Positions 20,146 to 41,418 of a stretch of 64,000 nt of DNA are shown here, in pieces; position 1 is the stretch's first letter; the number at the start of each line of letters is the position of its first letter. The notes below the pieces were generated by a model, which saw nothing but the letters and a program-made list of their open reading frames with translations, did not search any database and was not told the DNA's origin. A program made the translations under genes and the position numbers. The stretch is taken from contig JAQUQW010000001.1 of assembly GCA_028716245.1 (NCBI GenBank), positions 40,793 through 104,792 of the forward strand, in the 5' to 3' direction. The DNA is from Candidatus Omnitrophota bacterium. Lineage in GTDB: Bacteria > Omnitrophota > Gorgyraeia > Gygaellales > Profunditerraquicolaceae.

Positions 20146-20708
20146 AGATCGGCATCCTCGGCGGGACTTTTAATCCGGTACATATCGGGCACTTGATTTT
20201 GGCCGAAGAAGCAAGAGAAAAGTTAGCGCTGGATAAAATTATCTTTATTCCCACGGCGCTGCCGCCGCATAAAGATAACGCGGGTATTGCCCCCGCGGAT
20301 GACCGCTTGAAAATGCTAAGAGCGGCGGTTAAAGGGAATAAGTTTTTTGCGGTTTCGGACATTGAAATCAGACGCCACGGGCGCTCTTATACAATCGATA
20401 CCTTAAAAGAATTAAAAAATAAATTTACCCGCGATGAGCTTTATTTTATTATCGGTTCTGATTTGCTTAAATATTTGAACGAGTGGAAGGATTTAAGTGA
20501 AATAATCAAAATGGTAAAATTTATCGCGGCTACCCGGCCCGGATATCCGCTTCAGCAGTTACCGCATTATATACAGACTTTGGCTATCCGGGCGGTAGAT
20601 GTTTCAGGTTTTGAGGTGCGCCAGTGTATTAAAGAAAATAAATCATTTAGATATCTGGTGCCGGATAAAGTTTTTGACTACATAAATAAAAGGAAGCTGT
20701 ATAAATGA
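20142..20708 (+). CDS. nadD: Nicotinate-nucleotide adenylyltransferase
   Basis: GILGGTFNPVHIGH, the (H/T)xGH nucleotidyltransferase motif. Confidence 0.85.
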   Translation: MKIGILGGTFNPVHIGHLILAEEAREKLALDKIIFIPTALPPHKDNAGIAPADDRLKMLRAAVKGNKFFAVSDIEIRRHGRSYTIDTLKELKNKFTRDELYFIIGSDLLKYLNEWKDLSEIIKMVKFIAATRPGYPLQQLPHYIQTLAIRAVDVSGFEVRQCIKENKSFRYLVPDKVFDYINKRKLYK

Positions 20709-24908: not shown

Positions 24909-26074
24909 TGGATATAAACAAGCAGATAGAAATAATTAAAAGGGGCGCTGTAGAGATAATCTCTGAAGATGAGCTTCGTAAGAAGCTGGAGCAGAGCATA
25001 AAACTTAAGCGCCCCTTAAAAATTAAAGCCGGGTTTGATCCTACTGCCCCTGATTTGCACCTAGGCCACACTGTACTCTTAAGAAAACTGCGTCAATTTC
25101 AGGATTTGGGGCATGAAGTTTATTTTCTTATCGGTGATTTTACCGGCCAGATCGGCGATCCTAGCGGCCGCTCTGAAATTAGAAAACAACTCACCAAACA
25201 GGAGGTATCCAGGAATGCCCAAACCTATAAAAAGCAGGTGGCTAAAATTTTGGATATTGGTAAATTAAAGATCGTTTTTAACAGCAAATGGTTTGAAAAA
25301 ATGTCGGGGGTAGAGATGTTGCAGCTTACTACCCATGCTTCGGTTTCTCAGATGCTGGCGCGTGATGATTTCAAGAAGCGTTTTACAAACGGAGAAAATA
25401 TTTCGATTTTGGAGTTTGTTTATCCTTTAATGCAAGGGTATGATTCGGTCATGCTTGAGGCTGATGTGGAGATCGGAGGCACAGACCAGATATTTAACTT
25501 GCTGGTCGGCAGGGAATTTCAAAAAGATTTCAGCCAGCCGCAACAGGTGGTCCTGACTATGCCGCTTTTGGAAGGCACCGATGGCGTAGCTAAAATGAGC
25601 AAGTCCTACGGAAATTATATCGGCATCAATGAACCGGCAAGCGAGATCTTCGGTAAAATCATGTCAATCTCCGACGAGCTAATGCTTAAATATTACGAAT
25701 TGTTAACTGATGAAGAGTTGGTTAAAGTTAAACAGACGCATCCAAAAGAGGCAAAGGTAAATTTGGCCAAGATTATTATCACTCAATATCATTCTGCCGG
25801 GGCCGCGGAAAAAGAAGCGGAAGAATTTTCCCGCGTTTTTTCCCAGAAAGAAATTCCCCAAGATATGCCTGTTTTTAAAACTGACGGCAAAAAAAATATT
25901 CTTACTATCCTTACCGAAAGTAATTTAGCCGCCAGCGGCAACCAAGCGCGCAGGCTGATAAAACAGGGGGCAGTCAGCTTCAATAACGTAAAAATCGAAA
26001 AAGATGATTTTACCCCGATTGAAGCCGGCACCCTTAAGGCCGGTTCCCGCAGGTTCCTGAAAATTACTTTGTAG
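24908..26074 (+). CDS. tyrS: Tyrosine--tRNA ligase
   Basis: HLGH and KMSKS motifs. C-terminal S4-like domain. Confidence 0.9.
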
Positions 26075-26919
26075 ACAGTTTACGTAACCGCATATTCCCC
26101 AATCAGATCTATAAGAAATATTTCTCCGCAAAATAAATGTGGTTAGATTTTTCTACCTTCTGCGTCCATTATAACTGGAGGAGAGAGGACCATGCCATCA
26201 TATGCGCGTAAGCATCAATTGCAACAGTCATTAGTGTATCATGCGTTTAGCCGAAGCAGCGGACGCAAGGTGATTTTTCAAGAATCTAGGGACTTCGATC
26301 ATTTTAAGACCTTGCTTTGCGAGTATAGCAATAGGTTTGATTCAAAAATATATCATTGGGTCATTATGCCGAATCACTACCATCTTGTGGTTGAATTCGA
26401 ATGCCCTGAATTGATTTCGAAATTTATGGCAGGATTACATCGAGCGTATAGCCATTATTACCATAAGCAATATAACGCGGCGGGTTTTTTATGGCAAGGC
26501 AGATTTAAATTACAGCCGATACAAAAAGATTTATATTTGAAAAATTGCGGCAGATATGTGGAGAGAAATCCGGTGCGCGCGGGAATGGTTGCGGAGGCCT
26601 GCGAATATGCGCATAGCAGCGCGCGATTTTATTGTTTAGGACAAGAGGACGGAATAACGCGAGTTAGTCCCGATTTTGAAGACTTCGGAAAAGAGATTGT
26701 TGGGCGACAGGCAGCCTATAAAGAATTCTTGAGAGTTTTTGATAGTAAAGAGAATGTTTATTTCTCGAATATAGAGATCCCCCGTGGTGATCAGGATTTC
26801 CTACGCAGGCTGGTGAAGACAGGTATGCATTATTTTCCGAGAAGGCAAGGCAGGAAAGCCGCAATATTTGTTCCGTAACCATTTAACTTCAATAGAATTA
26901 CCTACACTGTCTATAATTC
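26069..26919 (+). mobile_element. Compact IS-like unit: an IS200-like Y1 transposase (RAYT) bounded by about 20 bp imperfect inverted repeats
   Basis: The left inverted repeat TTGTAGACAGTTTACGTAA (26069-26087) overlaps the tyrS stop. The right inverted repeat ATTACCTACACTGTCTATAATT is at 26897-26918. The reverse complement of the left repeat matches the right repeat at 16 of 19 positions. Both flanks recur around 34196-35544. Confidence 0.6.
26192..26878 (+). CDS. IS200-like / REP-associated tyrosine transposase (Y1 HUH, TnpA_REP-like)
   Basis: HUH motif HYHLVV. C-terminal NPVRAGMVAEACEYAHSSARFY matches the conserved Y1 transposase catalytic helix. 228 aa. Confidence 0.8.
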   Translation: MPSYARKHQLQQSLVYHAFSRSSGRKVIFQESRDFDHFKTLLCEYSNRFDSKIYHWVIMPNHYHLVVEFECPELISKFMAGLHRAYSHYYHKQYNAAGFLWQGRFKLQPIQKDLYLKNCGRYVERNPVRAGMVAEACEYAHSSARFYCLGQEDGITRVSPDFEDFGKEIVGRQAAYKEFLRVFDSKENVYFSNIEIPRGDQDFLRRLVKTGMHYFPRRQGRKAAIFVP

Positions 26920-26970
26920 TTAATTCTTTTACCTTTATTTTCCAGGGGTTTAGCGATATAATCATTAATT

Positions 26971-27234
26971 ATGCTTTGGATGATAATCGGCATTTGTGCC
27001 GCCACCCTAACCATGTTTTCTTTTATCCCCCAGATAGCCAGGTCTTTAAGGACCAAATCTGTCAAGGATGTAAGCCCGGTTACTTTATTTCAGCTTTCCG
27101 CGGGGGTTTTATTATGGATGATTTACGGAATTTACCGCAAAGACCCGATAATCATATCGGCAAACGCAGTAACTTTAGTAAGCTTATCGATATTAATATT
27201 TTTATATTTTAAATATGGGAGATTAGCCAAATGA
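26971..27234 (+). CDS. SemiSWEET / PQ-loop family small membrane sugar transporter
   Basis: 87 aa. Three TM helices with the PQ motif [10 protein letters not shown]. It ends where rmlA starts. Confidence 0.55.
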
Positions 27235-28911: not shown

Positions 28912-29915
28912 TTACCGGCGCCGCCGGCTTTATCGGCAGCGCATTTGTTAGATTATTATCGAAGGGACTGTCCCCGAAGGGGACTGTCCCTGAGGTTACT
29001 ATAATTGATAAACTCACTTATGCCGCAGACCTGAAGCGTCTCGAAGATATTGATAAAAGGGGACTGTCCCCGAAGGGGACTGTCCCCTTTTACAAAGCCG
29101 ATATTTGCAATAAAAAACAGATTGAAAGGATTTTTTTAAAAGAGAAACCGGATATCGTCGTCCATTTCGCCGCTGAAAGCCACGTCGACCGCAGCATTAA
29201 CGATGCTTCGCCGTTTATCGAAACTAACATTAAGGGCACGCAGGTTCTTATTGATGCCAGCCGCAAATACAATATAAAGCAATTTATTTTAATCTCGACT
29301 GACGAAATCTACGGAGAGATTGCCAATGGCAAGTTTAATGAGGATTCTCCGATTAAACCGAACAGCCCTTACGCGGCTTCTAAGGCCGCCGCGGATCTTT
29401 TAGTACAATCATATATCCGGACTTATAAGTTTCCCGCGATAATTATCCGTCCCTCAAATAATTACGGGCCATGGCAGTATCCGGAGAAGTTGATTCCACT
29501 GGCGATCTTAAGAATAATAGAGGGAGGTAAAGTTCCGCTTTATGGTAAGGGGCAAAATGTGCGTGAATGGCTCTATGTAGATGATTGCGCAAAAGGCATC
29601 CTGGCGATTATGGATAAAGGCGCAAGCGGGCAGATTTATAATTTAGGCAGCAGCCAGGAAAGCAGGAATATCGATACGGTAAAACTTTTATTGGAAACTT
29701 TGGGAGTCAGCCAGAAAAGATTTAAATTTGTTAAGGATCGCCTTGGCCACGATATAAGATATAGTTTGGATTCCAAAAAGCTTTACCAAAAGCTCGGCTG
29801 GGAACCCAGCGTTAAACTTGCGCAAGGCCTTAAGCTTACCGTGGACTGGTCGCTTAAGCATCAAGCTTGGCTTAGAAGTAAGCTAGGAGATATAAATAAA
29901 TTGTATAATAAATAG
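28884..29915 (+). CDS. rmlB: dTDP-glucose 4,6-dehydratase carrying two in-frame 10-codon palindromic repeat insertions
   Basis: [24 protein letters not shown] and the YAASKAA catalytic motif. Two surface-loop insertions GLSPKGTVP. The stop codon TAG is part of a REP-like palindrome. Confidence 0.85.
   Translation: MRKRIPKILVTGAAGFIGSAFVRLLSKGLSPKGTVPEVTIIDKLTYAADLKRLEDIDKRGLSPKGTVPFYKADICNKKQIERIFLKEKPDIVVHFAAESHVDRSINDASPFIETNIKGTQVLIDASRKYNIKQFILISTDEIYGEIANGKFNEDSPIKPNSPYAASKAAADLLVQSYIRTYKFPAIIIRPSNNYGPWQYPEKLIPLAILRIIEGGKVPLYGKGQNVREWLYVDDCAKGILAIMDKGASGQIYNLGSSQESRNIDTVKLLLETLGVSQKRFKFVKDRLGHDIRYSLDSKKLYQKLGWEPSVKLAQGLKLTVDWSLKHQAWLRSKLGDINKLYNK
28964..28990. repeat. In-frame tandem palindrome GGGACTGTCCCCGAAGGGGACTGTCCC (REP1 copy 1) inside rmlB
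   Basis: Two units of the GGGGAC-T-GTCCCC palindrome separated by GAA. It encodes GLSPKGTVP. Confidence 0.85.
29059..29087. repeat. REP1 copy 2 inside rmlB (GGGGACTGTCCCCGAAGGGGACTGTCCCC, flanked by AAAA and TTTT)
   Basis: Encodes RGLSPKGTVPF in frame. Confidence 0.85.
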
Positions 29916-29959
29916 GGACAGCGACCATTATTTTTGAAAAATAATGGTCGCTGTCCCTA
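29913..29959. repeat. REP-like palindrome copy 2. A 47 nt perfect palindrome TAGGGACAGCGACCATTATTTTT-G-AAAAATAATGGTCGCTGTCCCTA.
   Basis: Its leading TAG is the rmlB stop codon. It probably also acts as a terminator hairpin. Confidence 0.85.
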
Positions 29960-29975: not shown

Positions 29976-31034
29976 ATGCCGGTTGTTATAGTAACGGGTT
30001 CCTGCGGTTTAATCGGCTCTGAAACCGTCAGTTTCTTTGCCGAAAAAGGTTTTGATATCGTCGGTATCGATAATAATATGCGCAAAAGTTTTTTTGGCGC
30101 GGATGGCTCAATCCTTTGGAATAAACAGCGTCTCCAGAAACAACATAAAAACTACCGTCATTATCACGTGGATATCCGCGATCAAGGAAAAATAAATTCA
30201 ATATTCAAGAAATTCAATAAAGATATCGCTTTAATTGCGCACGCCGCGGCCCAGCCTTCCCATGATTGGGCGGCTAAAGATCCCATGGTTGATTTTGGGG
30301 TTAATGCTCAAGGCACGCTGGTTATGCTTGAGGCCCTGCGCAAATTCTCACCCCATGCGGTTTTTATCTTTACCTCAACGAATAAAGTCTACGGTGATAC
30401 TCCTAACCGCCTGCCCTTAATTGAAAAAGAAAAGCGTTTTGAAATAGCCGGCGGCCATAAATATTATAAGGGTATCGATGAAACCATGAGCATCGATAAT
30501 TGTTTACATTCAGTTTTTGGGGCATCTAAAGTTGCCGCGGATGTGATGGCCCAGGAATACGGAAAATATTTTCATTTAAAGACCGGCATATTTAGGGGAG
30601 GCTGCCTTACCGGCCCGGCGCATTCCGGAGCCGAACTGCATGGATTTTTGTCTTATTTAGTAAAATGCGCGGTAACAAAACGCACATATAAAATTTACGG
30701 TTACAAGGGTAAGCAGGTAAGGGACAATATTCATTCATTTGATTTGGTTAACGCGTTTTACCACTACTTCCAGAATCCCCGCTTGGGTGAGGTTTATAAT
30801 ATTGGAGGAGGCAGGTTTGCCAATGTGTCGGTTTTAGAAGCAATTGAGATTTGCGAAAAATTAACCGGGGAACAGTTTGAGTATGAGTATATTGATACCA
30901 ACCGTATCGGCGACCACATCTGGTGGATCAGCGATGTCTCTAAATTTAAATCACATTATCCGAACTGGAATTACAAGTTTGGTATCGAAGAAACAATCAA
31001 ACAAATTCACGATAATTATAGACAGTCTATGTAA
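29976..31034 (+). CDS. NAD-dependent epimerase/dehydratase (CDP-paratose 2-epimerase-like SDR)
   Basis: [13 protein letters not shown]ossmann motif. Catalytic YGASKVAAD. Confidence 0.7.
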
Positions 31035-31069
31035 TTCCATAAAAGATAACCAGTTACAAAACAAATATT

Positions 31070-32116
31070 GTGGAAAATATGAAGTATAATAATATTTTAA
31101 TCACCGGCGGCGCGGGGTTTATCGGCAGTAACCTGGCGGTATATTTTAAGCGCGAATATCCGCGGCTTAAAGTTTTTGTTTTGGATAACTTGGTCCGCCG
31201 GGGAAGCGAATTTAATTTACCGCGGCTTAAGGAAAACGGCGTTAAGTTTATCCGCGGTGATGCCCGGCGCCCCAAAGACCTGGATCTGGAATTTGATATA
31301 GATTTGATATTGGAATGTTCAGCCGAGCCGTCGGTATTGGCGGGTTATCAGAATCCATCTTATATTATTGATACCAACCTGATGGGCACGGTTAACTGCC
31401 TTGAGTTGTGCCGCAAGCGTAAAGCGGGGATGATTTTCCTTTCCACAAGCAGGGTTTATCCCTATGAAAAAATAAACGCGATCAAGCGCCTTGAATCAAA
31501 GAGCAGGTTTGAGTGGCCGCGTTTTAGCGGTATCGATACGGATTTTTCTTTAACCGGCCCAAAGACTTTGTATGGGGCGACTAAGCTGGCGTCGGAATTT
31601 ATCCTGCAAGAGTATATTGCCGCCTACGGGATCAAGGCGGTTGTGAACCGCTGCGGAGTGGTTGCCGGGCCATGGCAGTTTGGCAAGGTTGACCAGGGGG
31701 TATTTACCTATTGGATGCTGGCGCACTATTTTAAAAAGCCGCTTAAATATATCGGTTTTGGCGGGCAAGGCAAACAGGTGCGCGACCTTTTACATGTTGA
31801 TGACCTTTGCCGGCTAATTGGCATACAGGCAAACAGCCTTCCTAAGTTAAGCGGCAATACTTATAATGTCGGCGGCGCAAGAGAAATAAGCCTTTCTTTA
31901 TTGGAAACCACCGCGCTTTGCCGGCAGATTTCCGGTAATAACGTTAAAGTTGGCCACAACTTGCGTAACCGTCCGGGCGATATCGCCGTATACCTTACGG
32001 ATAACAAAAAAGTTACCCGGGAACTAAAATGGCAGCCGCAAAAACCGGCAATAACGATCCTGAATGATATTTTTAACTGGATCAGGAATAATGAGGCGAA
32101 GCTAAGAAAACTCTAA
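31070..32116 (+). CDS. NAD-dependent epimerase/dehydratase family protein
   Basis: ILITGGAGFIGSNL. YGATKLASE (YxxxK). Confidence 0.7.
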   Translation: MENMKYNNILITGGAGFIGSNLAVYFKREYPRLKVFVLDNLVRRGSEFNLPRLKENGVKFIRGDARRPKDLDLEFDIDLILECSAEPSVLAGYQNPSYIIDTNLMGTVNCLELCRKRKAGMIFLSTSRVYPYEKINAIKRLESKSRFEWPRFSGIDTDFSLTGPKTLYGATKLASEFILQEYIAAYGIKAVVNRCGVVAGPWQFGKVDQGVFTYWMLAHYFKKPLKYIGFGGQGKQVRDLLHVDDLCRLIGIQANSLPKLSGNTYNVGGAREISLSLLETTALCRQISGNNVKVGHNLRNRPGDIAVYLTDNKKVTRELKWQPQKPAITILNDIFNWIRNNEAKLRKL

Positions 32117-34193: not shown

Positions 34194-34374
34194 TAACGTA
34201 GACAGTGTAGCTAAGATCTTGTAATGTAAAGAGATATAAAACAAATATTTTATATTCAAAGAATTTTTATTAGATTTTACGTCTTTCTACGTCCATTGAT
34301 AGTAGAAAGGAGAGCTTAAATGAGCAATAAACTTTGAGGTTTCATTCTGCAACCTCATGTTTTTACTGGGTAAA

Positions 34375-34432
34375 TAGGGACAGCGACCATTTTTTTCTTC
34401 TATGTGAACAAGAAAAATGGTCGCTGTCCCTA
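34375..34432. repeat. REP-like palindrome copy 3 (TAGGGACAGCGACCAT...ATGGTCGCTGTCCCTA), intergenic
   Basis: Same 14 nt arms as the copies at 5408 and 29913. Confidence 0.8.
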
Positions 34433-34485: not shown

Positions 34486-34818
34486 ATGACTGAACAGCCC
34501 CAAAAAGAAGAAACTCTCTTTATTTTCAAAGAGTTAGAGGCCAACCCAAATACTACTCAACGGGATCTTTCCAGCCGCCCGAACATCTCCTTAGGTAGAA
34601 CTAACTATCTTCTCCGTGAACTCATTTTAAAGGGTTTCATCAAAGCCAAAAGCTTCACCGGTAACCCCGGGAAGCTAAGAAAAATGCATTATCTTCTAAC
34701 CGAGAAAGGCTTGGAAGAAAAATTCAGGCTTATTAAACATTTCCTGCAAATAAAAGAAGTAGAATACAATAAACTGAAACAGGAAAGTGATCTACTGATG
34801 AAAACTTATGGAGATTAA
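34486..34818 (+). CDS. MarR-family winged-helix regulator (EPS-associated type)
   Basis: 110 aa. The wHTH region is QRDLSSRPNISLGRTNYLLRELILKGFIK. It lies inside a polysaccharide locus. Confidence 0.55.
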   Translation: MTEQPQKEETLFIFKELEANPNTTQRDLSSRPNISLGRTNYLLRELILKGFIKAKSFTGNPGKLRKMHYLLTEKGLEEKFRLIKHFLQIKEVEYNKLKQESDLLMKTYGD

Positions 34819-34833
34819 CTATATTAGAAATCC

Positions 34834-35363
34834 ATGAAAAATAATAAAAATGTATATATAATTGCTGGCCCCAATGGTTCAGGAAAGACTACATTTGCGA
34901 ATAAATTTTTGCCTGATTATGCCGTATGCCAGAATTTTGTGAACGCCGATCTCATAGCTCAAGGGCTTTCGCCATTTTCTCCCCGCGTATTTGCTATAAA
35001 AGCTGGAAGAATTGTTTTGGAGCAGATCAATGGGTTTGCGGAAAGCGGGGTTGATTTCGGATTTGAGACTACGTTGTCAGGTAAATCATATGTCAATATC
35101 CTAATTCACAGCTTGCTATCGCGCGCATTAAGGAGAGAGTCTTAATGGGCGGCCACGATGTCCCCTCTAAGGATGTGCGTAGGCGTTTTACCAGGTCTAT
35201 GGTTAATTTGTTTAGATTGTATCAGCCGTTATTGGATTCTTGGATGATTTTTAATAACTCCGGCATTACTCCCGTTTTAATCGCGAAAAATGTGGATGGG
35301 AATTTAATTATTTCTGATGAGCAATCATTTAACAAGATTATAAAAATGGAGAATAAAAAATGA
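34834..35363 (+). pseudogene. Zeta-toxin-like / AAA-family P-loop kinase, disrupted by an internal deletion plus frameshift
   Basis: ORF 34834-35145 carries the P-loop GPNGSGKTT. ORF 35145-35363 carries the C-terminal GGHDVPSKDVRRRF motif. The C-terminal frame is open from about 35090 (..SQLAIARIKERVLMGGH..). About 20 residues expected between the two halves are missing. Confidence 0.55.
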
Positions 35364-35516: not shown

Positions 35517-36236
35517 ATGAGATTACGTACACTGTCTATAATTATTATTCTTCTCTTGGCCACCACTCGCGGATTTTGCTATCCGGCCGACGTAGTCAGC
35601 CTCAACAACCGGGAGTATTTTCCGGCGGCGCAAAAAGCGATCGCGCAGGCAAAGAAATCTATATTTATAGTGATGTATTTAATCAGTTTCGACAAAGAAA
35701 ACAAAAGCTCAAAAGTTTTTCAATTAGTGGACGAACTGGTTAAAGCTAAGCTTAGGGGGGTGGAGGTTAAGGCTATTTTGGATTACCAGAGTAGCTCTAC
35801 TTTTCCCGCGGGCCAGGAAAATTATGCGGCATTTAAGTTTCTTAAGGATAAGGGAATTGATGCTTATTTTGACGGCGCGGTAGTTTACACCCACACTAAA
35901 GCCATGGTTATCGATAAGAGGATAGTTATTTCCGGAAGCCACAACTGGTCTGACGCCGCGCTTGAGAGGAACAACGAGACTTCATTTTTAATCGATTCAC
36001 CTGAATTAGCCAGCCGGCTTTTGGATGAATTTTCGCGGATCAAGCTCTCGAGGCCTGAATTAAAAGAAGGCGCGGTGGCTAGAATTCCATATTGGGCAAT
36101 GGAAAAAAACGGAATTATCCTGGATATGCTCCACCGGCACGATGAAAAGTGTCTTGATACCTGGCTTTTGCTCCTAAGGGATTTTGATGGCAATGCCGCT
36201 GGCCTGGTAAATACAAATTATGAAGTGCTGGCTTGA
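35517..36236 (+). CDS. Phospholipase D-family (HKD) protein with signal peptide, Nuc-like
   Basis: HKD motif HTKAMVIDKRIVISGSHNWS. N-terminal signal peptide. The first codons overlap the right-end repeat of the IS-like unit. Confidence 0.75.
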   Translation: MRLRTLSIIIILLLATTRGFCYPADVVSLNNREYFPAAQKAIAQAKKSIFIVMYLISFDKENKSSKVFQLVDELVKAKLRGVEVKAILDYQSSSTFPAGQENYAAFKFLKDKGIDAYFDGAVVYTHTKAMVIDKRIVISGSHNWSDAALERNNETSFLIDSPELASRLLDEFSRIKLSRPELKEGAVARIPYWAMEKNGIILDMLHRHDEKCLDTWLLLLRDFDGNAAGLVNTNYEVLA

Positions 36237-38206: not shown

Positions 38207-38997
38207 AAGATATTAAAGAAAAAGTATCCGTAATCATGCCTGCTTATAAAGAAGTAGGACATATTGCCAACAGCATAGATATTACGGCTAAGACTTTTCA
38301 GGATTTTGGCTGCCCCTGGGAATTGATTGTGGTCGATGATGGTTCAGAAGATGGGACCTATGAAGCGGCGCTTGAAGCCGCAAAGAAATACCCCGGTTGC
38401 GTCATTGTAAAGAAGAACGCTTTTAATATAGGCAAGGGCCGGGCATTAAAAAGAGCAATCCATTTTGTAACCGGTGATTATACCGTGTTATTGGATGCGG
38501 ATATGGATTTACATCCTTTACAGATAGTAACCCTCTTTGATATTATGCGCCTGAATAATGCTGATGTAGTAATCGGCTCAAAGATGCATCCTAATTCAGT
38601 CGTTAATTATTCGCTGCAGCGTAGAATGATCAGTTTAGGTTACTATATCTTTGTGAAAATACTTTTTGGTTTGCCTTGTCATGATACCCAGACAGGTTTA
38701 AAATTGTTTAAGACTAAGGTTTTAAAGGATGTATTTCCGCGTATTCTGGTTAAGAAATTTGCTTTTGACCTTGAGTTATTGGTAAATGTTTTTCATTTGG
38801 GCTATAAAATAACCGAGGCGTCGATTGTGCTTACTCCTCAGAGAAGATTTGGAAGGGTCAGTTTTTCTTCAATATATACTACTTGGTGGGATACTTGCGC
38901 TGTTTGGTACAGAATGTATGTTTTAAAATATTATGATCGTATCGATTATCATCGCCGTAAAAACCTGGCAAAAGAATTTAGAAGAATGCGTCGCTAA
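38203..38997 (+). CDS. Glycosyltransferase family 2 (Dpm1-like)
   Basis: VSVIMPAYKE, VVDDGSEDGT and DADMD motifs. Confidence 0.8.
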   Translation: MKDIKEKVSVIMPAYKEVGHIANSIDITAKTFQDFGCPWELIVVDDGSEDGTYEAALEAAKKYPGCVIVKKNAFNIGKGRALKRAIHFVTGDYTVLLDADMDLHPLQIVTLFDIMRLNNADVVIGSKMHPNSVVNYSLQRRMISLGYYIFVKILFGLPCHDTQTGLKLFKTKVLKDVFPRILVKKFAFDLELLVNVFHLGYKITEASIVLTPQRRFGRVSFSSIYTTWWDTCAVWYRMYVLKYYDRIDYHRRKNLAKEFRRMRR

Positions 38998-39916
38998 GTG
39001 TTTGGAATTGGATTATCCGGATTTTGAGATAATTATCCTTCCGGATAAAGCTTTCGCTAGGGGACTGTCCCCGAAGGGGGCTGTCCCCATAAAAGTAATT
39101 CCAACCGGTAATCTTAAGCCCGCTGACAAACGCGATATCGGTTCCAAACACGCCAAAGGTGAGATCATCGCCTTTATCGATGATGATGCTTATCCGGTTA
39201 AAGATTGGCTTAAATCTGCTATAGTAAATTTCTCAGATCCAGAAGTGGCCGCAGTCGGAGGCCCGGCAATAACCCCGCCGGATGATACCTTAAGCCAACA
39301 GGCAAGCGGCAAGATTTATTCATCACTTATGGTCAGTGGGAATTTTGTTTACCGCTATGTTCCTAAAGTAAAGAGGACAGTTGATGATTTGCCAAGCTGC
39401 AATTTTATTGTGCGTAAGGATGTAATTGAAGAACTGGGAGGTTTTAATACAAGCTTTTGGCCCGGAGAAGACACAAAGCTATGCCTTGATATTGCGCATA
39501 AGTTAGGCAAGAAGATTATCTATGATCCGGCTGTTCTGGTTTTTCATCATCGCCGCACAGTGTTTATGGCTCACTTGAAGCAAATCGCTAATTATGCTCT
39601 GCATCGGGGATATTTTGTTAAGAAATTTCCGGAGACATCCTTAAAACTATCATATTTTATCCCCAGTATATTTGTCGCAGGTTTAATCTTTGGTCCGGTT
39701 GTTGGATTATTGTCCTATCCGGCTAAGTTATTGTATCTTGTTTGTGCAGTTTTATATTTAACAATAGTTTTTATATCAAGCTTATCAGGGACTAGGGACT
39801 ATCCCCGAAGGGGACTGTCCCTAAGTTTTATGGTTTTCTCAGGTATTGTTCTCACGCATATTACTTATGGTATTTTTTTTATCAAAGGTTTGTTGGCTAG
39901 AGGGTTAAAAGAATGA
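38933..39916 (+). CDS. Glycosyltransferase family 2 with C-terminal TM helices, carrying two REP1 insertions
   Basis: GT-A DxD-like region IAFIDDDAY. Insertions GLSPKGAVP and a degenerate copy at 39788-39822. Confidence 0.7.
   Translation: MIVSIIIAVKTWQKNLEECVAKCLELDYPDFEIIILPDKAFARGLSPKGAVPIKVIPTGNLKPADKRDIGSKHAKGEIIAFIDDDAYPVKDWLKSAIVNFSDPEVAAVGGPAITPPDDTLSQQASGKIYSSLMVSGNFVYRYVPKVKRTVDDLPSCNFIVRKDVIEELGGFNTSFWPGEDTKLCLDIAHKLGKKIIYDPAVLVFHHRRTVFMAHLKQIANYALHRGYFVKKFPETSLKLSYFIPSIFVAGLIFGPVVGLLSYPAKLLYLVCAVLYLTIVFISSLSGTRDYPRRGLSLSFMVFSGIVLTHITYGIFFIKGLLARGLKE
39060..39088. repeat. REP1 copy 3 (GGGGACTGTCCCCGAAGGGGGCTGTCCCC) in frame in the GT2 gene
   Basis: Encodes RGLSPKGAVP. One substitution, A to G, relative to the consensus. 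Confidence 0.85.
39788..39822. repeat. Degenerate REP1 copy 4 (GGGACTAGGGACTATCCCCGAAGGGGACTGTCCC) in frame in the GT2 gene
   Basis: The first unit is disrupted and the second is intact. It encodes TRDYPRRGLSLS in frame. Confidence 0.7.
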
Positions 39917-41418
39917 TGAAAGTCATAATTTCTTATCCGCCATTAAGCAATGAAAAAGGTTGTCCTACTTTAGGCCAGAACCGGCAGTTCCAGTATTTTA
40001 AAGAGCCAACTCTGATTTATCCGGTTGTTCCGGCTACCGCGGCGACTATGCTTAAACAGGCAGGATATGATGTTATTTGGAACGATTGCCTGGCTAAGGG
40101 CTGGAGTTCTGCGCAGTTTCTTGATTTTATTCGTACAGAGCAGCCGGATGTTATTGTTTTTGAAACCAAAACCCCGGTTGTAAAAGAGCATTGGAAAATC
40201 ATTAATGACCTAAAGGAAAGCGCCAGGGGACTGTCCCCGCAGGGGACTGTCCCCGTGATCGTATTATTCGGCGACCACGTTACCGCCTTACCCGAAGAAT
40301 CTTTTCAGAATTCTCAGGTTGATTTTGTCATTACCGGTGGAGATTATGATTTTTTGCTTTTAAACTTATGTAATGTTCTTAAGCAAAGGGGACTGTCCCC
40401 GCAGGGGACTGTCCCCGACAGCGTTGAATTCGAGCCCGGTATATATTATCGAGAGAACGGCCAAATAAAGAATACCGGTAAATTTACTTTAAACCACAAT
40501 TTAGATAAAGTTCCTTTCATTGATCGTGTTCTGACATGTTGGCAGGATTATGCTTATAAGAATGGTAACTATAAGCGTATTCCCGGAACTTATATTATGA
40601 GCAGCCGTGATTGTTGGTGGGGAAAATGCACATTTTGCTCTTGGCCTACGCTTTATCCAAGCTTCCGCAGCCGGAGTGTTGAAAATGTCCTTAATGAAAT
40701 TGGGGAGCTTATTGAAAGGTATAATGTTCGGGAAATTATGGATGATAGCGGGTGTTTTCCGGCGGGAGAGTGGTTGCGTAATTTTTGTCAGGGCATGATT
40801 AGCCGCGGCTATAATAAAAAAATTTACTTTGGCTGTAATATGCGTTTTGGCGCACTAAGTGATGAAGATTATAGTCTTATGAAGCAGGCTAATTTTCGTC
40901 TGCTTTTATTCGGCCTTGAGTCAGCGAATCAAACAACATTAGACAGGATAAATAAGAACCTTAAGGTTGAGCGTATTGTGGAGGGATGTGAGGCAGCGAC
41001 TAAGGCCGGGCTTTACCCGCATATTACGGTTATGTTTGGTTATCCTTGGGAAAGTTATGAAGATGCGCTTAAAACATTACGGTTAGGCAGTTGGCTGCTT
41101 AAGAAGGGATACGCCTATACGATGCAGGCAACTATGGTAATTCCTTATCCGGGAACTCCATTATTTGAAGAATGCAAGAAAGAAGGATGGCTTAAGACTT
41201 TGGATTGGAATGATTATGATATGAAACAGCCGGTTATGCGCACTCCATTTGATGATGTTAAGGTGATGCAGCTTGTTCAGGGGATGTATAAGGTTTCCTA
41301 TCAGCCCGAATTTATCTTAAGAAAATTATTTTCCTTAAAAGATATTGATGATCTAAAGTATTGGTTACGCGCCGCCAGAAAGGTTTTCGGGCATATTGTT
41401 GATTTTAAGAAGGTTTAG
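39913..41418 (+). CDS. B12-binding domain radical SAM enzyme (class B) carrying two REP1 insertions
   Basis: CWWGKCTFCSW (CxxxCxxC). N-terminal B12-binding-like Rossmann region. Insertions GLSPQGTVP twice. Confidence 0.8.
   Translation: MMKVIISYPPLSNEKGCPTLGQNRQFQYFKEPTLIYPVVPATAATMLKQAGYDVIWNDCLAKGWSSAQFLDFIRTEQPDVIVFETKTPVVKEHWKIINDLKESARGLSPQGTVPVIVLFGDHVTALPEESFQNSQVDFVITGGDYDFLLLNLCNVLKQRGLSPQGTVPDSVEFEPGIYYRENGQIKNTGKFTLNHNLDKVPFIDRVLTCWQDYAYKNGNYKRIPGTYIMSSRDCWWGKCTFCSWPTLYPSFRSRSVENVLNEIGELIERYNVREIMDDSGCFPAGEWLRNFCQGMISRGYNKKIYFGCNMRFGALSDEDYSLMKQANFRLLLFGLESANQTTLDRINKNLKVERIVEGCEAATKAGLYPHITVMFGYPWESYEDALKTLRLGSWLLKKGYAYTMQATMVIPYPGTPLFEECKKEGWLKTLDWNDYDMKQPVMRTPFDDVKVMQLVQGMYKVSYQPEFILRKLFSLKDIDDLKYWLRAARKVFGHIVDFKKV
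40226..40254. repeat. REP1 copy 5 (GGGGACTGTCCCCGCAGGGGACTGTCCCC) in frame in the radical SAM gene
   Basis: The spacer is GCA instead of GAA. It encodes RGLSPQGTVP. Confidence 0.85.
40388..40416. repeat. REP1 copy 6 (GGGGACTGTCCCCGCAGGGGACTGTCCCC) in frame in the radical SAM gene
   Basis: Encodes RGLSPQGTVPD. Confidence 0.85.

Follow-up and report, generated by a model that had tools for sequence, protein, structure and literature searches.

RAYT genes, which encode tyrosine transposases associated with repetitive extragenic palindromes (REPs), are characteristically flanked by REPs in inverted orientation, and the TIRYTs of 'TIRtrons' are defined as a subgroup by their long terminal inverted repeats (TIRs) (PMC3733652, PMC6006769). 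TIRtrons, TIRYTs and the TIR repeat families were described by Di Nocera et al. 2013 (PMC3733652); TIRYTs are TnpA-Y1 subclass 2.1 of Quentin et al. 2018 (PMC6006769) and RAYT group 1 of Bertels et al. 2017 (PMC5581495). Quentin et al. saw no repeats near subclass 2.1 genes (PMC6006769). In the view of Bertels et al., no other RAYT group is as insertion sequence (IS)-like as group 1 (PMC5581495). A further tnpA-REP of subclass 2.1 lies beside the prochlorosin genes of marine picocyanobacteria (bioRxiv 10.1101/2020.03.09.984088), where no inverted repeats were found and where the causal claim was later withdrawn by the authors. Here we describe a Y1 transposase gene that lies between tyrS and PQ-loop/rfbA genes in a 64-kb stretch of DNA (the window) from a Candidatus Omnitrophota bacterium. 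We consider it probable that this locus is a TIRtron, in which a single-copy, vertically inherited TIRYT gene lies between cognate inverted repeats that are bipartite and about 55 nt long. An initial annotation of the same DNA had held that RAYT elements normally lack inverted repeats, a premise that the literature cited above contradicts.

The Y1 gene (26192..26878, plus strand) encodes a protein of 228 amino acids that scores 58.8 bits against the Pfam family Y1_Tnp (cut-off 23), and its initial reading as an HUH/Y1 transposase of the RAYT branch was borne out. The protein carries NHYH at residues 61-64 (H62, H64), WQGRF at 101-105 and the catalytic-tyrosine motif YVERNP at 122-127 (Y122); H62, H64 and Y122 are invariant in 64 homologs. 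A look-up by exact sequence returned no record of this protein. For subclass 2.1, the published motifs are NHVH or NH[YF]H, then W[EQ], then Y[IV]xxNP, and the median protein length is about 238 aa (Table 1, PMC6006769); the window protein has this set, with NHYH, WQ at 101-102, YVERNP and a length of 228 aa. When the published TIRYT sequences (Additional file 5 of PMC3733652) were compared with it by BLASTP, the best match was Geobacter gbm 2474 (117 bits, 38% identity, E 5e-36); eight published TIRYTs scored 82-117 bits (gbm 2474, pfs 148A, sml 1152, dau 2153, gsu 2396, rba 2408, sml 4509 and pca 3049), and TIRYT aba 2776 scored 72 bits. The two canonical RAYTs compared scored lower, with 52 bits for Pseudomonas pfs 3939 and 35 bits for E. 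coli TnpA-REP b0228, to which the similarity is weak (E 0.048 in a separate comparison). The TIRYTs of the Acidobacteria group, aba 1552 and aba 3477, scored 54 and 33 bits and overlap the RAYT scores. Two NCBIfam models gave scores below their cut-offs: REP_Tyr_transpos (NF047646) with 65.2 bits (cut-off 80) and transpos_IS200 (NF033573) with 23.7 bits (cut-off 55).

An AlphaFold model built with the 64 homologs as input had a predicted local distance difference test score (pLDDT) of 87.7, and its top match among solved structures was 4ER8 (TnpA-REP bound to REP), followed by the TnpA proteins of IS608 and ISDra2 (2VJV, 2XMA). Residues 144-228 form a helical C-terminal extension of about 85 aa with high pLDDT, which ends in PRRQGRK and aligns with the tails of published TIRYTs via the pattern G-D-x-x-F...P-R-R-x-G-R. 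The published extension is described as helix-turn-helix (HTH)-like (Bac_DnaA_C, HTH_23 or HTH_28); a Pfam search with the C-terminal 86 aa of the window protein matched no family at E values up to 10. The protein thus resembles TIRYTs in being RAYT-like, in its size of about 230 aa, in a C-terminal extension that ends in G-R-(P/K)-basic residues, and in the motifs NH[YF]H, WQ and Y..xNP. Judged by its sequence, it is a TIRYT, of RAYT group 1 and TnpA-Y1 subclass 2.1, and belongs to the RAYT branch; by analogy with characterized relatives, it would have HUH/Y1 single-strand DNA transposase activity.

The initial annotation placed inverted arms of about 20 bp around this gene, with the left arm overlapping the end of tyrS, and both statements were confirmed. 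The left arm TTGTAGACAGTTTACGTAA (26069-26087, plus strand) is identical at 16/19 positions to TTATAGACAGTGTAGGTAA, the reverse complement of 26898-26916, and the TAG at 26072-26074 within the left arm is the stop codon of tyrS, which encodes the 388-aa tyrosyl-tRNA synthetase. The worry that such arms might be chance matches was answered in three ways. When both intergenic flanks were shuffled (n=500), a match of 16/19 was reached in just 2/500 shuffles. A search for further copies found the 19-mer, at no more than 3 mismatches, four times in the window versus 0 expected (at 26069, 26898, 31016 and 35523), along with a fifth, weaker copy at 34196-34214. Finally, a check on co-occurrence in related genomes showed that the inverted pair recurs there and flanks the orthologous gene wherever the flank suffices.

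These arms of 19-20 nt are the outer block alone of a longer repeat. The full repeat is bipartite and about 55 nt long, and occupies 26069-26123 on the left and 26862-26916 on the right. In the left TIR (26069..26123, plus strand), the outer block is TTGTAGACAGTTTACGTAAC (26069-26088) and the inner block CTATAAGAAATATT (26109-26122); in the right TIR (26862..26916, minus strand), the outer block is TTATAGACAGTGTAGGTAAT (26897-26916, minus strand) and the inner block GGTTACGGAACAAATATT (26862-26879), which covers the final five codons and the TAA of the TIRYT gene (the product ends in ..AAIFVP). Placed in register, the two repeats agree at 16/19 positions of the outer block and 9/10 of the inner block. 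We aligned 49 copies from 8 independent loci (the window and seven related loci), and the alignment is gap-free over about 55 nt. Its consensus is (G/A)TAGACAGT-N-TACGTAA(T/C) for the outer block and GTTAC(A/G)AAA(C/G)AAATA(T/C)T for the inner block, with about 20 nt of moderate conservation between them. As in described TIRtrons, long inverted repeats rather than REP hairpins flank the gene, and the right repeat overlaps its 3' end. We found no hairpin in single repeat units, for which DNA-fold z-scores lay between -1.3 and +1.8, and the fold of the 49-copy alignment was likewise unstructured; because neither showed structure, a reading of the repeat unit as a REP hairpin was ruled out.

Between the left TIR and the start codon lies a leader (26124..26191, plus strand) with a conserved GTTAGATTTTT at 26142-26152, a pyrimidine tract and the ribosome-binding site GGAGGAG, followed by ATG. 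The same leader precedes other genes as well, in the window (34267-34325), in L001 (11368, an HTH gene) and in L012 (14957, ORF6N). Pairing between the pyrimidine tract and the ribosome-binding site, a purine tract, is weakly supported (consensus energy -1.38 kcal/mol; compensatory changes in 6/9 pairs), and a leader hairpin that masks the ribosome-binding site is tentatively suggested by these sequences. IS200 is reported to have a leader that masks its ribosome-binding site, and the left-end leader here may do likewise. A scan of 25950-27050 for sigma-70 promoters and terminators gave no excess over shuffled sequence and nothing conserved inside the repeats; a weak terminator-like stem at 26126-26142 is apparently not conserved in the orthologous leaders inspected. 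One ortholog of 83% identity departs from the usual arrangement: instead of the left end and its leader, L024 (9930-10000) has a minus-orientation copy whose end lies 18 nt upstream of the ATG, so that the two repeat copies flanking the Y1 gene there point the same way.

Scanning species-representative genomes gave 564 homologous loci, and all homologs at 55-93% identity come from Candidatus Omnitrophota. The Y1 gene occurs once in the window and once in each related locus, and statements on copy number refer to the window and to each of these loci. Wherever a locus has enough flank, the order tyrS, Y1 gene, PQ-loop/rfbA is retained from 93% down to 66% protein identity, and in 11/13 loci tyrS terminates at the TAG of the repeat head. 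Against six orthologs, the ratio of nonsynonymous to synonymous divergence (dN/dS) was 0.08-0.14. Although dS reached 1.3-3.0 in the more distant orthologs, the left outer block was still identical at 17-19/19 positions. We conclude that the Y1 gene is a resident that is vertically inherited under purifying selection, that its ends are also constrained, and that it did not insert recently. Its constant place beside tyrS and the strong purifying selection differ from the picture of group 1 as the most IS-like RAYTs (Bertels, PMC5581495); since no repeats had been seen near subclass 2.1 genes and group 1 had been viewed in this way, the lineage described here is more like a classical domesticated RAYT than the literature predicts. 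L014 and L015 contain a homolog of 63% identity whose repeat heads are the same but which sits elsewhere, behind an RHS gene; the unit has therefore relocated or been duplicated at some past time.

In some orthologous loci, a BrnT/BrnA pair or an HTH gene stands between the Y1 gene and PQ-loop/rfbA. The BrnT/BrnA toxin-antitoxin pair occupies this space in L001 (10791-11887), L005 (10262-10870), L008 (10785-11368) and L010 (10774-11375), and the window is without these inserts. In L001 this space contains an HTH_37 gene as well, which lies between a full left end, leader included, and a right end in which the last transposase codons are preserved.

We then compared repeat heads with protein lineages at 80 loci from the scan, and almost every homolog with enough flank was framed by inverted repeats of like build. 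Across these loci the heads form a series from TAGACAGT to AAGACGCT and then to GGGGACGCT or GGGGACAGT. Orthologs have the TAGACAGT head, and paralogs of about 53% identity that lie on an ortholog's contigs (L031 with L023, L033 with L004) have AAGACGCTTTATCTAA-type repeats. At 42-50% identity, homologs have (G)TAGACGCT or GGACGCT heads; those at 36-45% identity carry GGGGACGC, GGGGACAG or GGGGACAC; and those at 34-45%, from Planctomycetota, Deltaproteobacteria and others, have GGGGACGCT, GGGGACAGT, GGGGACACT or GGGGACGG heads. The head type of the whole family can be written G(G/T)(G/A)GAC(A/G)(C/G)T, which includes the published GGGGWSAS. These data show co-variation between the repeat head and the protein lineage. 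On non-systematic inspection, an inner block of the GTTAC type recurs in the distant lineages L047, L048, L049, L071 and L104. The locus differs from published TIRtrons in its host phylum, as Omnitrophota are new to this group, in having the head GTAGACAG instead of GGGGWSAS, and in its bipartite 55-nt build with a conserved GTTAC-AAA-AAAT inner block, of which we found no earlier description.

Copies of the repeat also lie away from the Y1 gene. Orthologous loci contain 4-10 copies per 20 kb, most of them in a zone that begins 6 kb upstream of the Y1 gene and extends to 10 kb downstream, and loci 15-20 kb off on the same contigs contain 2 copies per 20 kb. Some copies stand alone, others form head-to-head doublets or surround other genes in pairs, and right-end copies carry the last codons of the transposase gene; repeat families of moderate abundance with singles, dimers and clusters are likewise known from TIRtrons. 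A strict plus/minus alternation of copies, as in L012, is not general, and we do not claim that every copy is paired. In the prochlorosin-associated system, which belongs to the same subclass, 3'-end fragments of the transposase are likewise scattered among the neighbors and a role in local gene-cluster diversification was proposed, as one is for the present locus below; unlike that system, the present one has clear repeats and heterogeneous cargo.

Movement of the repeats can be seen at orthologous sites. At the junction of the CTP_transf_like and ribulose-phosphate epimerase (RPE) genes, no repeat is present in the window (~20675-20708), L001, L005 or L016, and the two genes overlap by 34-37 nt. 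Besides these empty junctions we examined L004, L008, L010, L012, L017, L018, L020, L021, L023 and L027: eight loci have a head-to-head repeat doublet at this site, L010 has a cassette of a zeta-toxin plus a 49-aa product, and L020 has a different, GGGGAC-headed repeat. The junction is thus an insertion hot spot, and the repeats have moved, as orthologous sites are found both filled and empty.

Three further copies lie in the window. A full solo copy with both blocks (31016..31070, plus strand) takes up the space that separates two epimerase genes and supplies the end (..DNYRQSM) and the stop codon of the open reading frame (ORF) 29976-31034. The C-terminus of this epimerase is repeat-encoded as ..IHDNYRQSM in the window, L016 and L017 and as ..IYDNYRQCM in L023, in each case up to the stop; L012 and L027 use another frame of the repeat, which gives ..IDSVRNSIKY before the stop, and epimerases without the repeat end in ..IYEAQK or similar. 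A head-only copy, TTATAGACAGTGTACGTAA (35523..35541, minus strand), lies within the first codons (MRLRTLSI) of the PLD-like ORF 35517-36236 and has the same placement at the orthologous PLD-like gene in L008 and L010. A degenerate copy of the left-end type (34196..34325, plus strand) has the head ACGTAGACAGTGTAGCTAA, the inner block ATAAAACAAATATT and a leader with TTAGATTTT and a CTTTCTAC/GTAGAAAG stem, and ends at a 5-codon ORF. In one orientation the repeat contains TAG and TAA, and in the other it leaves two frames open; this layout lets insertions at gene ends replace the last codons and supply the stop, and it explains the overlap with stop codons (tyrS, epimerase) and with one start region (the PLD-like ORF 35517).

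The locus resembles the E. coli REPtron (TnpA-REP, YafM, PDB 4ER8) and the RAYT/REPIN systems of Pseudomonas: a single-copy gene with vertical inheritance lies between inverted copies of its cognate repeat, the repeat doublets resemble REPINs, the (G/A)TAG start of the repeat resembles the REP foot GT[AG]G, and TnpA-REP gives the closest solved structure. Unlike the REPtron, however, the repeat unit is non-palindromic and lacks a hairpin, the sequence similarity is weak with REP_Tyr_transpos below its cut-off, the protein has the extension of about 85 aa, and copies are seen mostly near the gene.

How might such an enzyme act on its repeats? The activity that characterizes HUH/Y1 endonucleases is metal-dependent cutting and joining of single-stranded DNA by way of a 5'-phosphotyrosine link. 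From homology to E. coli TnpA-REP and to the TnpA proteins of IS608 and ISDra2, the HUH metal site and Tyr122 would cut and rejoin single-stranded DNA at the repeats, probably when both inverted arms pair on the lagging-strand template. Since the single unit has no hairpin, the substrate is likely a stem formed by the paired left and right arms on single-stranded DNA, either as a doublet or as a panhandle around a gene. DNA bounded by repeats would then be copied or moved, and the enzyme gene itself would stay put.

Several points weigh against the locus being a TIRtron that acts in this manner. All five copies in the window are confined to 26.0-35.5 kb of its 64 kb. In the comparison of filled and empty CTP_transf_like/RPE junctions, neither target duplications nor clean ends were evident, and the junctions have diverged. 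To our knowledge, no TIRYT (subclass 2.1) enzyme has been studied biochemically, so that cleavage of these repeats is purely inferred, and every Y1 enzyme that we know to have been studied recognizes a hairpin, which makes the pairing of left and right arms an assumption. Finally, the window head GTAGACAG fits GGGGWSAS at just 6/8 positions; that motif is present in many published TIRs and absent from others (PMC3733652), and thus is not strictly defining.

A bolder extension of the TIRtron reading, to which we give only an outside chance, is that the repeats are more than selfish passengers, that pairs of them bound exchangeable units and that the resident Y1 enzyme is a local single-strand recombinase that captures and shuffles small accessory genes. 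These may include toxin-antitoxin, defence and sugar-modification genes in the adjacent variable island, and the whole may form a hairpin-free, integron-like system. Genes do lie between repeat ends: an HTH gene in L001, with a complete left end and leader on one side and a right end with the last codons of the transposase on the other, ORF6N in L012 between inverted copies, and an HTH_24 gene with an ATPase fragment in the window, also between inverted copies. The CTP_transf_like/RPE junction, depending on the genome, is vacant or contains a repeat doublet or a zeta-toxin cassette, and the left end brings along a leader that includes a ribosome-binding site.

The segment of the window just mentioned (34486-35145) contains the HTH_24 gene (110 aa) and a 103-aa ORF between plus and minus repeat copies, along with a family B hairpin (see below). 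The 103-aa ORF has only a P-loop N-terminus, with weak matches to AAA, NACHT and zeta-toxin, and is probably a truncated ATPase.

Two palindromic repeat families share the window with the TIR. Family A is the 29-mer GGGGACTGTCCCC-NNN-GGGGACTGTCCCC, and GGGGACTGTCCCC has 23 matches on both strands versus 0.43 expected; family B consists of TAGGGACAGCGACC...GGTCGCTGTCCCTA hairpins, and GGGACAGCGACC has 7 matches versus 0.10 expected. The initial annotation noted that the TIR shares a GACAG/CTGTC pentamer with both families and proposed that one enzyme recognizes and spreads all of them. The pentamer is indeed present in families A and B; its basis, however, appears to be the head motif of the enzyme family rather than a single enzyme. 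That the enzyme described here recognizes a GACAG core and spreads all three families would account for the occurrence of GACAG in each of them, and it gains something from the heads across the protein family being variants of one motif (GGGGACAGT or GTAGACAGT), from the overlap of family B with a TAG stop codon, as the TIR overlaps that of tyrS, and from other GGGAC-headed repeats that occupy, in relatives, the intergenic site of a window TIR copy. The distribution of the families argues otherwise. The family A 29-mer, which was found in at least 120 DNA stretches in a metagenome scan, flanks a different Y1 gene on the metagenome contig L104, where two inverted 29-mers surround a gene of 200 aa whose product shares 29% identity with the window protein. 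Paralogs from Omnitrophota that are about 200 aa long have GGGGACGTCCC-N4-GGGGACACCC repeats built like those of family A, and in L091, TAGGGACAGCGCCCTA, which resembles family B, flanks a distant Y1 paralog. Moreover, families A and B are absent from most orthologous loci (L004, L005, L008, L010, L012, L016, L018, L021 and L023 to L027), which keep the Y1 gene and 4-10 TAGACAGT copies; of the closer relatives only three have them, with both families in L001 and L020 and one family A match in L017. In studied REP systems, each enzyme has its own repeat family (PMC6006769). A single enzyme for all three families is thus improbable, and these sequence comparisons make it likelier that several paralogous enzymes each act on a repeat family of their own, with some cross-mobilization conceivable. 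The shared GACAG would therefore reflect a head motif common to the whole enzyme family.

Both families show features of their own. Within coding genes, the family A palindrome lies in frame at 28963-28991, 29059-29087, 39060-39088, 39794-39822, 40226-40254 and 40388-40416; these six sites have the 29-nt form GGGGACTGTCCCC-GAA or GCA-GGGGACTGTCCCC and add RGLSPKGTVP-like loops to rfbB (two sites), ORF 38933-39916 and ORF 39913-41418. The rfbB orthologs are without the 7-9 extra residues or have them at one of the two sites. The family B sites at 5410-5463, 29915-29957 and 34377-34430 are long perfect hairpins, TAGGGACAGCGACCATT...AATGGTCGCTGTCCCTA, with variable loops, just behind genes, and the family B TAG at 29913-29915 is the stop codon of rfbB. 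An Rfam search of 25.5-36.5 kb (E values up to 1) gave only sub-threshold chance matches, on family B hairpins. In three relatives, unrelated hairpin repeats take the site of the window's intergenic TAGACAGT copy (L004 15461-15545, L005 14960-15055 and L018 15487-15560); they begin with GGGAC or GGGGAC right behind a TAG stop, as in GGGACCGTTTC..., GGGGACAGTTTCC... and ...ACGTCCCC. Several repeat families with GGGAC/GGGGAC heads thus seem to compete for the same gene-end sites.

A host function for the repeats fares worse still. In favor of operators, promoters or terminators of the tyrS-rfb neighborhood that lie near the Y1 gene by coincidence, the copies are located at gene boundaries and are denser within 10 kb of the Y1 gene; the minus-orientation copy ends in TATAAT, and the left-end leader stands directly upstream of several unrelated genes. 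The promoter scan described above, however, stayed at the level of shuffled sequence and placed no promoter in the repeats. The copies also occur in both orientations and inside coding ends in different frames, inverted pairs flank the Y1 gene in every lineage with a head that changes with the protein, and presence or absence at orthologous sites fits insertion rather than a fixed operator. We therefore regard coincidental host sites as very improbable, and a secondary host use of some copies as possible.

Scarcely any room is left for an active, autonomous IS200/IS605-type insertion sequence that recently inserted downstream of tyrS. In its favor, the gene encodes a Y1 transposase and has defined ends, and the homolog of 63% identity with the same heads at another locus (L014, L015) shows past relocation or duplication of the unit. 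The locus shares with IS200/IS605 elements (IS200, IS608, ISDra2) the HUH/Y1 catalytic fold and the lack of a readable clean target duplication, here at diverged junctions. Those elements, however, have same-orientation subterminal hairpins at both ends, a Y---Q motif, numerous identical copies, often a tnpB gene, and a transposase of about 150 aa. The locus has none of this: its ends are inverted and lack structure, its tyrosine motif reads Y---NP, its 228-aa protein scores 23.7 bits against transpos_IS200 (cut-off 55), there is no tnpB gene, and the 64-kb window and each locus contain a single copy. Furthermore, the position after tyrS is constant in 13 orthologous loci, down to 66% identity and with synonymous sites saturated, and the active-element explanation is largely refuted by this synteny. 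A miniature inverted-repeat transposable element of the DDE type was rejected, as the unit contains no other transposase and the repeats track the Y1 protein.

The TIRtron reading therefore remains the one we favor. New here are the host phylum, GTAGACAG as a head variant, a repeat built in two blocks, deep synteny with tyrS, orthologous sites both filled and empty, and co-variation of head and protein across the family; because this kind of element has already been described, the conceptual gain is modest. For Omnitrophota annotation, the repeats explain stop codons and C-terminal residues that they supply to housekeeping genes such as tyrS. For subclass 2.1 enzymes, the locus and its 80 relatives suggest a concrete test substrate, an end of about 55 nt in two parts with a conserved head and a GTTAC inner block, and the natural variation of the head, together with the filled and empty sites, would allow a direct test of which DNA these enzymes act on and of whether they need a hairpin.

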